DNA of 64,000 nucleotides from an uncultured Brevundimonas sp. Its GTDB lineage: Bacteria > Pseudomonadota > Alphaproteobacteria > Caulobacterales > Caulobacteraceae. The translations under genes and the position numbers were made by a program. Shown here in pieces: positions 3,420 through 47,000 of the stretch. The stretch spans positions 255,721 to 319,720 of the forward strand of contig NZ_CAXBOQ010000003.1 of assembly GCF_963977465.1 (NCBI RefSeq), read 5' to 3'. The first letter of the stretch is position 1. The number at the start of each line of letters is the position of its first letter. The notes beneath the pieces are model-generated. The model saw only the letters and a list, made by a program, of their open reading frames with translations. It had not been told where the DNA came from and made no database searches.

Positions 3420-4240
3420 AGCTGATCCGGAGTGGAGGTGTCGGGCATGGCCTGAAGCCGTCCCTGGGCATTGCGGATCAGGGTCGGGGGCTCAGGCGGT
3501 GCGGCGAGGTCCTGGGAGGCCAGGGAGGTGGGCAGATCGACAGCGATGGCGTCGACATAGGTTGCGGCCGGCAGCGGCGTCGGGTCCGGCTGGCGATTGT
3601 TCTGGCGATGCACCGAATAATAGCGTGCGCCCTGCTCTGCGGGGCCGTTGGTCGAGGCCGCCACCGGGGTGCGCGTCGGCGCGACGGTCGGTGCCTGGAG
3701 GCGGGGCTGCGGTGCCGCGGCGGGGGTTGGGTCGGGTGTACCCTGCATGTGGAATATCAGGGCGTCGCGCCGCGGAGCCATTGGATCGGGAGCGGTCAGA
3801 GGGACCGGGCCGGTCGCGACGGGCGTGGCCGGCGGCGGGGCCATGGCCGGCGGCGGAGCCGACGGGGCCGGAGGTGTCGGCACCAGAGCCGCAGGGGTCA
3901 TCCAGGCATTGGCCGGGGTCAGGCCCCCGGAGGGGGCGGACATCGTGCCGGTCGCCGCCTGGGCGGGCGGGGTGCCGTGCGGGATAATCGCGGGCGTCGG
4001 ACGGCGGGTGGGGGCCGGAACGGGGGCGTTTGTGGCGATGCGGCGCACCGGGGTGGTCGCGGGGCGTTCCGGGGTCGTCCGCGCGGGCGTGGTACGGCCG
4101 GGCCAGGTCAGATAGCGCAGACCCAGACTCTGGCCGTCGTTGCTCGCCCGCGCCGGCGGTTGCTGGGCTGCGGCCGGAGTCGCGGCGACGAGGGCTGCGA
4201 CAGCAAAAAGGGTAATCGACAGGGCACGACGCACAGGCAC
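3416..4240 (-). CDS. Pro/Ala/Thr-rich exported hypothetical protein
   Basis: Signal-peptide-like N-terminus (LFAVAALVAATPAAA); low-complexity body with islands LRYLTWPG and YYSVHRQ; 4-nt overlap with the DUF2336 start. Confidence 0.65.
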   Translation of the reverse strand: MPVRRALSITLFAVAALVAATPAAAQQPPARASNDGQSLGLRYLTWPGRTTPARTTPERPATTPVRRIATNAPVPAPTRRPTPAIIPHGTPPAQAATGTMSAPSGGLTPANAWMTPAALVPTPPAPSAPPPAMAPPPATPVATGPVPLTAPDPMAPRRDALIFHMQGTPDPTPAAAPQPRLQAPTVAPTRTPVAASTNGPAEQGARYYSVHRQNNRQPDPTPLPAATYVDAIAVDLPTSLASQDLAAPPEPPTLIRNAQGRLQAMPDTSTPDQL

Positions 4241-4285
4241 GACTCCCGCTGCAAGGACTGGAGTCGCACGGTAGTCGGGGCGAGC

Positions 4286-4301
4286 TTAACCTGCCGCTAA
4301 C
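4286..4301. promoter_or_regulatory. Putative CtrA box
   Basis: TTAA-CCTGCCG-CTAAC, one mismatch to TTAA-N7-TTAAC, 45 nt upstream of the 3416..4240 gene. Confidence 0.5.
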
Positions 4302-4334
4302 AACCAGGGTTGAATCCGCGAGTCCGGCAGGATG

Positions 4335-5366
4335 TCAGCCGCGACCTGGCAGATACTGGGTGGTGAAGGCCTCGCGCCAGTTCAGGGGGGCCGGATAGAC
4401 GCCGGCTTCGGACATGATCTCGAAGAAGGCCCGCCAGCGGTCCTCGGTCATGGTGCCGAGGCCGTAAAGGGCGGCGTCGCCTCCGTCGACGATGCCGTTC
4501 TCTTTCAGCGCCTGCCGGGCATGATCGAGCTCGGCCTGGGACATCTGCGGATTGTCGCGGCGGATCAGGAGGTCGGCGGCCCGGGCGTCACCGTGGATAT
4601 AGTCGCGCCAGCCCTCGGCCGAGGCGGCGATGAAGCTGCGCAGGGCGGTGGCATTGTCACGGGCGAAGGCGTTCGGGGCCAGCACCAGGGCGGCGTAGGA
4701 CGGATAGTCCTGATCGGCCAGCAGGAAGGAATGGGGCGTGAACCGGGCCGTCTGTTCAATCGCGTAGGCGTCGGCCCCGAGATAGCCCTGTTGCACGGCG
4801 CTCGGGTCGGCGATGAAGGCGGCCGGGTCGACATCATACGGGCGCAACTGGTCGTCGCTGAAATCGTAACGGGCCTTGAGCCAGATCCAGAAGGTCGCGG
4901 CCGCGGCGTCGGTCAGCAGGAAGGGCCGCCCCTTGAGGTCGGCAATCGACTTCAGCGCGGGATCCGGATGGGCGAGCAGCACCCGGGGATCCTTCTGGAA
5001 GAAGGCGGCGACCGCCTTTACCGGGGCACCCTCGGCCACGAGATTCAGTGGCATGAAGCTGTCGGAGCCCATGCCCAGTTCGACCGTGCCGGACGCCAGC
5101 AGCTGAGGCACGTCGATGTCGGGTTTACCCTGAATGATCTGGACGTTGAGCCCCCGTCTGGCATAGGCCCCGCCGGCGAGGGCCTGGTAGAAGCCGCCGT
5201 GTCCGGCGCGGGCATGCCAGTCTGTGGCGAAGCGCAGGCGCACGCGCCCTTCCTCGTCGACCGGGGCTTCTGCACGTCCGCAGGCCGCCAGTGTCGTGGC
5301 CGCAAGGGCCCCCGCGAGGAGGCTGCGACGGCTGGCGAAAGAGGGGCGATTCTGGTCCCGCGACAT
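4335..5366 (-). CDS. ABC transporter substrate-binding protein, NMT1/THI5 (SsuA-like) family, Tat/lipoprotein signal
   Basis: SRRSLLAGALAATTLAAC signal; RLRFATDWHARAGHGGFYQA and FFQKDP motifs; start moved to ATG 5366. Confidence 0.85.
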   Translation of the reverse strand: MSRDQNRPSFASRRSLLAGALAATTLAACGRAEAPVDEEGRVRLRFATDWHARAGHGGFYQALAGGAYARRGLNVQIIQGKPDIDVPQLLASGTVELGMGSDSFMPLNLVAEGAPVKAVAAFFQKDPRVLLAHPDPALKSIADLKGRPFLLTDAAAATFWIWLKARYDFSDDQLRPYDVDPAAFIADPSAVQQGYLGADAYAIEQTARFTPHSFLLADQDYPSYAALVLAPNAFARDNATALRSFIAASAEGWRDYIHGDARAADLLIRRDNPQMSQAELDHARQALKENGIVDGGDAALYGLGTMTEDRWRAFFEIMSEAGVYPAPLNWREAFTTQYLPGRG

Positions 5367-5373
5367 GGGCGGG

Positions 5374-5402
5374 AGCCTAGGGCGACGGTGCGGCCTTGGA
5401 AA
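5374..5402 (-). promoter_or_regulatory. Putative sigma70 promoter giving a leaderless transcript
   Basis: Minus strand TTTCCA-N17-TAGGCT, then 7 nt, then ATG. Confidence 0.4.
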
Positions 5403-5421
5403 GGCGGACCGGCAGCAATTC

Positions 5422-5826
5422 GGATGCCGGAATTGAGCGAGGGGACGCACGCCCGGTCGAACCGTTGCTTACGTCCCCTCGCCAAGTCCGGGTTGGGACT
5501 TGGCCATTGAGGTTCAGGGCCTTTGCGTCAGCACCAGCGGGCGAACCCGGCGATGGTCAGCGGTTTCCTGGCGACTCCTGGTCTTTGGCGTTCCGTCGGG
5601 TTTGACCCCGTCGTCGTCCATCGATCCCGGTCTGGTTCTCCGTCGCCCCGCACCGAAGCGCTAAAGACGGGGAGCCTGGACCCTGCCCGGTCTTTCCATG
5701 TCCCCCGAAGAGGTCAGGAACCCTTGGTCAGAGAGCCGGACCGGTTCGCTTGAGCCCCGGGTCTCCCCGGTTTTCCGCGCCGCCGTGTCCCTCGGCCTGA
5801 TCAAGCTCGCTCCAATCCGCCGATCC
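5422..5826 (-). ncRNA. Candidate large structured ncRNA, class unknown
   Basis: No credible ORF; 5' and 3' ends pair; nested 6-7 bp helices; three UUCG and two GNRA-type tetraloops, with G-U pairs, that work only on the minus strand. Confidence 0.65.
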
Positions 5827-5981
5827 CGCAAGCGCCCACGGGCATCCAATTGTGGATGTTTTGGTGGACGAATTTACCAATCTCGCGAACCAATCCGTGG
5901 ATGATTGGAAAACTTTCACAAGAGACCAAGGGTTTGGACGATCGTGCACAAGCAGATTCCTGGCGGTCGAAATTCGTCCGG

Positions 5982-7817
5982 TCAGGCGCTTTGCAGGGCC
6001 TCGCGCCGGGCCTCAAGCGCGAGCCATTCCTCCTCGGCGGTGACCAGCATGGTGCGGGCGCGGTCGGCGTTGGTGGTGGCGCGGTCAAAGGCCTTGCGGT
6101 CGCGGGCGTAGAGGTCGGGGTCGGCCAGGGTGGCCTCGTGGCGGGCGATGTCGGCGGGCAGGGAGGCGAGCAGGCCTTCGAGCTCCTTGAGCCGGTGGGT
6201 GTCCTTGAACGACATCTTGGCGGGCTTCTTCGATGGGGCGGGGGCCATGATCGTCGCCGGAGCGGGGCTGGCCGCGGCGCGACGCTGGGCCTCGGCGTCC
6301 TGGGGGCGCTGGTGGGTGCCGGGCTTGAGGAAGCCGGGGTTCTGACGGATGAAATCAGTCCAGCCGCCGGGCGTTTCGACGATGTCGCCGCGGCCGTTCA
6401 TGGCGATGGTCGAGGTGGCGAGACGGTCGACGAAATCACGATCGTGGCTGACCAGGATCAGGGTGCCGTCATAGGTTTCGAGCAGCTCTTCCAGCTTGTC
6501 GAGCGTGTCCATGTCGAGGTCGTTGGTCGGTTCGTCGAGGACCAGCATATTGGCCGGCTTGGCCAACGCCCTTGCCAGAAGAAGGCGGTTGCGCTCGCCG
6601 CCGGACAGGGTCGAGATCGGCTGGCGGAGCTGGCCTTCCTGAAACAGGAAGTCCTTGGCGTAGGCCGCGACGTGCTTGGACACGCCGCGCACGAGGATGG
6701 AGTCGCCGCCGCCCGGGGTCAGGGCGTCCCAAAGCGTCATGTCGCTGCGCAGCCCCTCACGCGACTGGTCGAGATAGACCGGGTCGAGATTGGCTCCCAG
6801 CTTGACGGTGCCGTCGTCGGGGGCGAGTTCGCCAAGCAGGATCTTGACCAGGGTGGTCTTGCCCGCGCCGTTGGGGCCGACGATGGCGAGCCGGTCGCCG
6901 CGGACAATGCGGGTGGTGAAGGGCTTGATGACGGTGCGCGGGCCAAAGGCCTTGGACACGCCCTTGAGGTCGGCAACCAGCTTGCCGGAGGTCGCGCCGG
7001 AATCGACGCCGAGATAGAGCTCGCGAGGGACATCCTTGAGCCGCTCGCTCCGGTCTGCCCGCAGGGCGTCGAGCGAGCGGGCGCGGCCTTCGTTGCGGGT
7101 GCGGCGGGCGGTGATGGAGCGGTAGAAGGTCTCAGTCTCACGCTCGATGGTTTTGGTCAGCCGTTGCAGGGACTGGGCCTCTTCCTCGGTGACCTTGGTC
7201 GACCATTCGTCGAAGGCGTCGAAACTCTTGTTCAGGCTGCGAACGCGACGGCCCTCCAGCCAGTGACAGGTCTGGGTCACGCGGTTGAGGAAGGCCCGGT
7301 CGTGGCTGACCACCAGTACGGCGCAGCGGGCCGAGATGAGTTCTTCCTCGAGGAGCTCGATGGCGAGGATGTCGAGGTGATTGGTCGGCTCGTCGAGGAG
7401 CATCAGGTCCGGCTCTTCGGCGAAAGCCTTGGCCAGGGCGGCGCGGCGGATCTCACCGCCCGACAGGTTGACCGCCGGCTTTTCCGGATCAAGGCCGAAG
7501 GTGTGGAGCCAGGCCTCGGCGGTCCAGGACTCGGCGTCTCCGGAGACGGCGTAGTCCGCCAACGTCTCGCCGGTGATGACGGGTTCCTGGGGCACATAGG
7601 CGAAGCGGACGCCGGACTGGACGGCCCGTTCGCCCGAGTCGGGCTCGACCTGACCCATGATGATCTTCATCAGGGTGGACTTGCCGGCACCGTTGCGGCC
7701 GACGAGACAGGCGCGGGTGCGCGGCTCGATGGCGAGATCGACGCCATCGAACAGGGGACGTTGACCGTCCTGGAGACGGACGCCTTTGAGGGCGATGAGG
7801 GGGGGACGGGCTGCCAT
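5982..7817 (-). CDS. uup: ABC-F family ATPase Uup
   Basis: Two ABC cassettes (GRNGAGKST/LSGGE/LLDEPTNHLD and GPNGAGKTT/LSGGE/VLDEPTNDLD), no TM segments, C-terminal coiled coil; start moved to ATG 7817. Confidence 0.9.
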   Translation of the reverse strand: MAARPPLIALKGVRLQDGQRPLFDGVDLAIEPRTRACLVGRNGAGKSTLMKIIMGQVEPDSGERAVQSGVRFAYVPQEPVITGETLADYAVSGDAESWTAEAWLHTFGLDPEKPAVNLSGGEIRRAALAKAFAEEPDLMLLDEPTNHLDILAIELLEEELISARCAVLVVSHDRAFLNRVTQTCHWLEGRRVRSLNKSFDAFDEWSTKVTEEEAQSLQRLTKTIERETETFYRSITARRTRNEGRARSLDALRADRSERLKDVPRELYLGVDSGATSGKLVADLKGVSKAFGPRTVIKPFTTRIVRGDRLAIVGPNGAGKTTLVKILLGELAPDDGTVKLGANLDPVYLDQSREGLRSDMTLWDALTPGGGDSILVRGVSKHVAAYAKDFLFQEGQLRQPISTLSGGERNRLLLARALAKPANMLVLDEPTNDLDMDTLDKLEELLETYDGTLILVSHDRDFVDRLATSTIAMNGRGDIVETPGGWTDFIRQNPGFLKPGTHQRPQDAEAQRRAAASPAPATIMAPAPSKKPAKMSFKDTHRLKELEGLLASLPADIARHEATLADPDLYARDRKAFDRATTNADRARTMLVTAEEEWLALEARREALQSA

Positions 7818-46834: not shown

Positions 46835-47000
46835 GGCGGGTCTTGCTGCGGCCCTCGTCGAAGGCAACATTCCTCGCGACCTTAATTCACTCAAAGGGAT
46901 CTGTCCCTGTCCGGGCTCGAGGGCCTGGGCATATGGAGCCCACCTGGCTACCCAGGTCTGAGAGGATTTCAACGCTCTTCACGGTTCTTGCGGCGCCGCC
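46835..47000 (+). ncRNA. ssrS: 6S RNA
   Basis: Canonical zapA-ssrS-ygfA position; GGCGG/CCGCC paired ends; AAAGGGATCTGTCCCTG and GCCCACCT resemble alphaproteobacterial 6S; ends approximate. Confidence 0.8.

Follow-up and report, generated by a model that had tools for sequence, protein, structure and literature searches.

A conserved structured RNA of Brevundimonas, probably encoded by a free-standing gene, beside an array of DnaA-box-like sequences

What is encoded where a Brevundimonas chromosome leaves a gap between two genes that holds a dense pattern of helices and no protein? The locus lies in a 64,000-nucleotide stretch from an uncultured Brevundimonas sp. (contig NZ_CAXBOQ010000003.1; the whole stretch is called the window below). 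On the minus strand of the window, the intergenic gap 5366-5982 separates uup from the gene of a periplasmic binding protein (the binding-protein gene). No credible reading frame was found across this gap, and a stretch of ~400 bp within the locus is currently left unannotated in Brevundimonas genomes. An earlier reading of the DNA letters, here called the original prediction, had placed an RNA of ~405 nucleotides on the minus strand at 5422-5826 and considered it a possibly undescribed class of large non-coding RNA. We asked whether comparison between species bears out such an RNA, where it would begin and end, and whether it is a gene of its own or the leader of its downstream neighbor. The explanation that we lean towards is a free-standing gene for a stable, trans-acting structured non-coding RNA of ~365-370 nt, belonging to an uncatalogued Brevundimonas family whose transcription is linked to DnaA.

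Conservation of the block was examined by BLAST, by motif scans and by profile search. Among 24 genomes from the genus, BLAST found a block corresponding to window positions 5426-5837 in 22, at 73-86% identity; the 16 genomes searched from five other families of the order had none. A motif scan for an invariant 21-mer, CCAACCCGGACTTGGYGRGGG, recovered at least 120 GTDB species representatives, almost all of them Brevundimonas or metagenome-assembled genomes (MAGs) of Caulobacteraceae / Caulobacterales, as well as at least 118 metagenome contigs. An nhmmer profile search recovered the element in every motif-scan locus, at full length unless the contig ended within it. The matches listed in the metagenome scan were genomic contigs only, with no transcript-like short contigs among them, and nothing similar was found in the plasmid and phage collections. 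The architecture is also kept in a divergent subtype made up of B. aveniformis and four MAGs (loci L039, L081, L094, L116 and L168), to which a scan with a subtype-specific 20-mer contributed one member, L168. The same 20-mer occurred in 28 loci from unrelated phyla (among L141-L170), which were rejected as chance matches in G+C-rich DNA, as their flanks share nothing; such matches were commoner in the 596-Gb collection than a uniform-composition estimate gives. The window's own genome has one copy of the element, and related genomes carry one full copy each, always in the same syntenic place. Dispersed copies, which would have pointed to a miniature inverted-repeat transposable element (MITE), were absent; one copy per genome and fixed synteny rule out a MITE, a repetitive extragenic palindrome (REP) or another mobile repeat. 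The RNA thus appears to be kept in essentially every Brevundimonas species in single copy, in the manner of a housekeeping gene.

Support for a structure comes from comparison between species and not from folding of the single sequence, which gave z = -2.0 and is weak evidence on its own. A nine-domain fold (P1-P9) was curated on the window sequence, such that RNA position p is window position 5802-p, and tested on 47 non-redundant sequences less than 88% identical to one another. In this set 90.1% of cells were paired, compared with 31-49% when the 3' partners were slid by 1-3 columns. Double changes occurred at 46 pairs (24-34 when slid) and in 307 cells (62-105 when slid), and none of 500 shuffles reached any of the observed measures of pairing or covariation. 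Independently, a mutual-information scan of 127 sequences ranked the pairs of the curated fold highest. RNAalifold on 20 sequences returned 95 pairs, 31 of them with compensatory changes; on MAFFT alignments of 127 and 47 sequences it returned partly spurious long-range pairs, and the curated fold was used instead. G-U combinations made up 8.1% of paired cells and A-C combinations 2.6%, an excess that assigns the RNA to the minus strand, as had been predicted. Length variation was restricted to the hairpin tips of P2, P7 and P9.

These data bear directly on whether the block could be something other than an RNA. A protein-coding gene is ruled out by the lack of codon periodicity and by gaps that do not come in multiples of three: variability across homologues was 0.194, 0.212 and 0.204 by position modulo 3, and gap runs numbered 830, 373 and 258 for lengths leaving a remainder of 1, 2 and 0, respectively. 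The modest single-sequence z would suit a conserved DNA element or a chance structure in G+C-rich DNA. However, 46 pairs with compensatory changes, an excess of G-U over A-C on one strand only, UUCG and GAGA caps that can be read on one strand only, and insertions confined to hairpin tips make this highly improbable. We therefore hold with strong confidence that the locus encodes a real, independently maintained structured RNA.

The domains differ in how they are supported. P4 shows UA-CG and CG-UA swaps at two pairs, the stem of its hairpin covaries at four of four pairs, and its pairs 72-118 and 75-116 stand near the top in mutual information. The P5 pairs 120-123/170-173 are 98-99% canonical, with AU-GC and UA-CG swaps, and the P7 pair 248-269 has the highest mutual information of the alignment (GC 64, AU 46, UA 8). 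In P2, 88-95% of cells pair and the double changes fall in the tip hairpin. The two helices that would set the global fold are nearly invariant, P1 with 88-94% of cells paired and one double change only, and P3 with 95% paired and two pairs with double changes; both are compatible with the data and little tested by covariation. P8 is the most conserved block of the RNA, without variation in all 47 sequences of the non-redundant set, the divergent subtype among them. The RNA has many unpaired junctions that are invariant (GAGGGACAC, GGAAA, GAGAACC, CGGGAUCGA, GGAACGCC, GACCAGGAG and CAGGAUACAGC), and the invariant P8 loop ACCC is a candidate partner, in a pseudoknot, for the invariant GGG of CGGGAUCG at 5626-5628. 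Individual lineages embellish the arms: the GAGA tip of P2 is replaced by an insert of ~26 nt, CCAAACCAGCAAUGGCGACGG, in some (among L030, L110, L112, L117 and L119), an extra hairpin of ~55 nt stands beside P7 in L030, L110 and L119, and the P9 tip is extended in L010, L012 and L112.

Part of the structure drawn in the original prediction, its local hairpins, recurs in the comparative fold. A non-coding structured block at this place on the minus strand was borne out by conservation and by strong covariation among homologues. The four tetraloop hairpins (GAGA at 5757-5770; UUCG at 5702-5713, 5650-5661 and 5538-5549) are real, with covarying stems; the 9-bp hairpin 5481-89/5496-5504 is P8, and the 11-bp helix 5437-47/5472-82 is part of P9. 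Several long-range helices were not sustained. The terminal helix GAGCGAG/CUCGCUC can form in the window and is not conserved, with many of its positions only 0-31% pairable in 127 sequences; its CUCGCU strand is used in the covarying P9. The same sequences do not keep 5801-06/5748-53, 5739-44/5687-92 or 5618-23/5551-56, nor do they support pairing of the conserved 5' flank with the 3' tail. For 5679-85/5515-21, the central 5 bp are 79-100% pairable and show no covariation, and the helix competes with the covarying P5.

We found no known family at the locus. Across the whole window, Rfam 15 (4227 models) at gathering thresholds returned 6S RNA only, in agreement with the predicted presence of 6S elsewhere. 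A permissive scan of 5200-6100 gave two chance-level matches with E > 1 and none on the element up to E = 10; four members of the family (L081, L013, L007 and L030, which include the divergent subtype) likewise had no match at the element up to E = 5. ARAGORN found no transfer-messenger RNA (tmRNA), the two-piece alphaproteobacterial form included, over 4000-7000, RF00010 (RNase P RNA) had no match at the thresholds tried, and P4 consensus strings of RNase P were absent on direct reading. Identity with 6S RNA was rejected, as the 6S gene sits elsewhere in the window and the element is a branched multi-domain fold rather than a rod with a central bubble. Could a known family, for example RNase P, tmRNA, 6S, raiA, ROOL, GOLLD, OLE, HEARO or the group I/II introns, include this RNA as a strongly diverged member? 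Covariance models can miss extreme variants, and a multi-domain fold of ~365 nt is within the range of RNase P RNA. Set against the empty Rfam and ARAGORN scans, the missing P4 strings and the separate 6S gene, we consider such an identity very improbable. No earlier description was found in the literature searched, and the family is new to the literature and databases searched and absent from Rfam. The suggestion of a possibly undescribed large RNA class is thereby supported by the Rfam negatives together with covariation, copy number and strand.

Table 1. Coordinates of the RNA, its domains and the surrounding features in the window
Feature	Position	Strand	Description
Structured RNA gene	5430..5797	-	P1-P9 core of ~362 nt plus conserved tail CAAUUC; both ends inferred
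P1, closing helix	5502..5797	-	5793-5797/5502-5506 and 5789-5791/5510-5512; encloses P2-P7; tentative
P2	5737..5785	-	three 3-bp steps with 2-nt bulges between, then GAGA-capped hairpin
P3, long-range helix	5574..5736	-	5732-5736/5574-5578; encloses P4, P5 and P6
P4	5683..5731	-	variable arm with UUCG-hairpin cap 5702-5713
P5	5629..5682	-	inner UUCG hairpin 5650-5661
P6, stepped hairpin	5582..5624	-	84-99% paired; 9 pairs with double changes
P7	5525..5561	-	UUCG hairpin 5538-5549; 3' of P3, inside P1
P8, hairpin	5484..5501	-	outside P1; invariant loop and 3' strand CCAACCCGGACUUGG; 98% paired
P9, long G+C-rich 3' hairpin	5436..5483	-	outside P1; variable tip; 96% paired, 5 pairs with double changes
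Possible 3'-end or termination structure	5409..5435	-	tail CAAUUC, then sequence-variable hairpin without U tract
Candidate RNA promoter	5803..5831	-	TTGCGG (5826-5831), 17-nt spacer, GAGCTT (5803-5808)
DnaA-box-like array	5851..5950	-	degenerate here; TGTGCACGA, TCATCCACG, TTCGTCCACC, ACATCCACA
Box-like TGTGCACGA	5942-5950	inverted	inverted form of TCGTGCACA
Box-like TCATCCACG	5896-5904	-	
Box-like TTCGTCCACC	5863-5872	-	
Box-like ACATCCACA	5851-5859	-	
Promoter-like block of the binding-protein gene	5364..5405	-	CGCCTTTCC (5397-5405); -10-like TAGGCT (5374-5379), 7 nt before ATG 5364-5366
Binding-protein gene	4335..5366	-	NMT1/THI5-like periplasmic binding protein, twin-arginine-type N-terminus; downstream neighbor, outside the RNA; Pfam PF09084, E = 3e-21
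uup	5982..7781	-	Uup, ABC-F ATPase; upstream of the RNA; Pfam ABC_tran x2 and ABC_tran_CTD; NCBIfam Uup, E = 1.9e-151
6S RNA	46840-47000	+	RF00013, 49.6 bits; canonical

We next considered the ends of the RNA (Table 1). The structured core occupies 5436-5797 and the tail reaches to ~5430, and sequence conservation continues upstream to ~5834. The segment directly 5' of P1 contains the invariant element GCGCTTGCC-N17-GAnCnT, which both subtypes keep; the invariant columns here are TTGC and G34, A35, C37, T39, A41 and C43. Read as a -35/-10 pair, this element would put the start of transcription at ~5796 ± 3, the first base of P1. The segment 5798-5834 looks like a promoter and not like RNA, and the original prediction, about right in its location, would have set the 5' limit ~30 nt too far out. 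A promoter of the sigma-54 or EcfG type upstream was rejected, as the spacing is unsuitable by eye. On the strand opposite the RNA, most relatives (e.g. L013 and L014; the segment corresponds to window 5799-5835, plus strand) carry TTGACG-N14-GCTATGAG, which is absent from the window's own subtype. It is a good match to the Caulobacter sigma-73 consensus. The sequence faces away from the RNA, in the direction of the box array and of the 3' end of uup. A promoter on this strand was set aside as an explanation; the match may be a divergent promoter or coincidental.

At the other end, the RNA probably stops just after the P9 hairpin. The tail is followed by a hairpin that begins 4-8 nt into it in most of 128 sequences, with three or more U after the hairpin in only 21% of them. 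In B. aveniformis (L081), a canonical hairpin and U6 terminator stands directly after the RNA.

We then asked whether the RNA might instead act in cis, as a giant riboswitch or a protein-bound 5' untranslated region (UTR) for the exported-protein genes downstream. The gene order invites this reading. In 116 of 118 informative loci the binding-protein gene follows the RNA in the same direction, within 130 nt of it in 67, at 131-700 nt in 28 and further away in 21. All clearly coding inserts in the spacer are also co-directional and encode signal-peptide proteins, and most species have no U-tract terminator after the RNA. However, a conserved promoter-like block belongs to the binding-protein gene itself, as the original prediction had suspected. 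In ~110 species this block reads CCCTTyCC, ~17 nt, TAAACC, 6 nt, ATG, which leaves no Shine-Dalgarno spacing. T occupies -12 in 72% and A occupies -11 in 84% of the sequences of this gene, and TAnnn[TC]-N5-7-ATG is present in 79% of them compared with 3.9% of control ATGs. Whether the distance to the RNA is 55 or 1000 nt, the block keeps its place at the gene. The binding-protein mRNA therefore appears, from these motifs, to be leaderless and so to have no 5' UTR to regulate. The -35-like CTTCCC of the block is not a usual one; an alternative sigma factor or a regulator may recognize it.

The spacer and the exceptional loci also speak against a leader. In many species, secreted-protein genes and palindromic repeats have entered the spacer that separates the RNA from the binding-protein gene, and the clade with an inserted gene shows a -10-like CGCTAGACA of its own, with GGAGA in the UTR. 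Three lineages have no binding-protein gene nearby and a convergent gene after the RNA (mutM in L007 and L071, a dapE-like gene in L118), yet they keep the RNA helices with lineage-specific compensatory changes. Moreover, the size and architecture of the RNA are far above those of known riboswitches. The promoter-like block, the tolerated insertions, the loci with convergent genes and the terminator in L081 together count against a leader. We are accordingly fairly confident that it is free-standing, and a cis-acting leader seems improbable. The spacer repeats, CCTCCCCC...GGGGGAGG(TGG), were seen in L016, L041, L080, L035, L056, L029 and L114. In L081, two long near-perfect hairpins at 3865-3975 and 4589-4684, upstream of the RNA locus, gave sub-threshold matches to plant and animal microRNA precursors on both strands and are most likely palindromic repeats.

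Upstream of the candidate promoter, the locus carries a second conserved feature, an array of sequences resembling DnaA boxes. Within the 240 nt upstream of the RNA, 9-mers with at most two mismatches to TTATCCACA occur at 6.5 per kb, compared with 0.16 per kb elsewhere in these 134 loci. This 40-fold enrichment falls at fixed positions, with peaks at -106 (inverted), -64, -54 and -20. The consensus from 127 sequences has five boxes in fixed order: A, CTGTGGAcAA (inverted); B, cgTCCACAG; C, TnCACAG; D, TTgTcCACc; and E, cgCACAg. Box A is inverted, and boxes B-E share one orientation and stand 10-12 bp apart. Perfect copies of TTATCCACA are present in some species, and the divergent subtype keeps the five-box consensus as TTGTCCCCA, TTATCCACC and CGCACA. 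The array adjoins the RNA even where an esterase gene, or a distance of 1-4.5 kb, separates uup from them. The adjacency of uup and the RNA seen in the window is not universal: a co-directional alpha/beta-hydrolase gene with an HGGG motif lies between uup and the array in ~30 species (e.g. L064, 2763-3770). CcrM sites (GANTC) are not a conserved feature of the region, the commonest position having a site in only 24 of 119 sequences.

Does the array serve the RNA, or the RNA the array? If the array were primary, it would titrate or reactivate DnaA, as datA and DARS do, or be an accessory site of initiation, and the RNA would serve it, either because strong transcription or an RNA-DNA hybrid gates the site or because the RNA binds DnaA. 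Five ordered boxes do look more like an array for DnaA oligomerisation than like a single operator, and array and RNA move as one unit that is single-copy and nearly universal in the genus. On the other hand, covarying helices and invariant junctions over 365 nt imply that the RNA itself is under selection, and not just its being transcribed. The window genome has degenerate boxes and an intact RNA, and no obvious A+T-rich unwinding repeats were seen. On either side of 5.8 kb the GC skew lies between +0.09 and +0.13, with no sign switch at the array, which rules out the chromosomal replication origin. We regard the array-first explanation as unlikely, if the least so of the alternatives.

In the explanation that we prefer, transcription would start near 5796 from TTGCC-N17-GAnCnT and end just after P9, and DnaA bound to the box array would set its rate. 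The level of the RNA would then follow the replication-initiation state of the dimorphic host. Whether DnaA in fact controls transcription of the RNA we put, on the evidence of the boxes, at an even chance. The RNA would act in trans, as a protein-binding scaffold or ribonucleoprotein, and not in cis on the adjacent gene. The scaffold role is a guess, which we favor because the P8 loop and many unpaired junctions are invariant. A further and doubtful extension would make RNA and box array one replication-control module, in which the RNA is made in proportion to DnaA occupancy and feeds back on initiation; for this the RNA may bind DnaA or a DnaA regulator, or its transcription may gate a datA/DARS-like site.

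Several observations weigh against this account. Both ends of the RNA and its promoter are inferred from sequence. A consensus scan calls neither a sigma-70 promoter nor an intrinsic terminator in the window, thereby missing the proposed promoter element, and the -10 hexamer GAnCnT is unorthodox. Only one of the window's boxes is within two mismatches of the consensus, and another factor that recognizes TSCACAG could be responsible instead of DnaA. P1 and P3, the long-range helices of the global fold, are backed mainly by invariance and not by covariation. Finally, the RNA is linked more tightly to the co-directional binding-protein gene than to uup, and there may be a functional tie between the two.

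Large, ornately folded bacterial RNAs are rare, and nearly all such classes whose function was later solved did something unexpected, in catalysis, in membrane biology or as cages. This RNA would add a family that is missing from Rfam. Brevundimonas are dimorphic relatives of the cell-cycle model Caulobacter, and DnaA is both the replication initiator and a cell-cycle transcription factor. We are not aware of any large structured RNA so far linked to DnaA. The conserved DnaA-box-like array is a directly testable regulatory handle, and the control module, if true, would be the first case of a large structured RNA built into the circuit of bacterial replication initiation.

Compared with known systems, the RNA resembles several and matches none. 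Leaders of the TPP, HMP-PP and guanidine-I type also stand upstream of, and co-directional with, genes of the NMT1 family (the binding-protein gene product has distant relatives in the PDB in 4nmy and ThiY 3ix1). In contrast to these leaders, this RNA is 3-5 times larger and has no model match, the gene downstream appears leaderless, and the RNA persists where that gene is absent. With RNase P RNA of type A it shares its length, a closing helix around stem-loop domains, UUCG and GNRA caps, a single copy and near-universal presence in its clade, but it has no RF00010 match, no P4 sequences and a narrow phyletic range. It can also be set beside the large RNAs raiA, OLE, ROOL, GOLLD and HEARO, which are likewise long, multi-domain, strongly covarying and free-standing, have invariant junctions and were found by comparative genomics. 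None matches this RNA in sequence or structure. At ~365 nt it falls between raiA and OLE in size, and unlike these orphan large RNAs it is limited, as tested, to one alphaproteobacterial genus and has no association with phages or mobile elements. We know of no upstream DnaA-box array described for any of them, nor of a DnaA-box cluster or DnaA-activated promoter that drives or adjoins a large structured RNA gene. The array itself, a putative DnaA target, has its counterparts in datA and DARS1/2 of E. coli, the DnaA-box clusters of B. subtilis and the gcrA, ftsZ and podJ promoters of Caulobacter. Like them it is intergenic and contains several TTATCCACA-like 9-mers, and it shares with them a fixed order of boxes, a location off the skew switch and a place beside a transcription unit.

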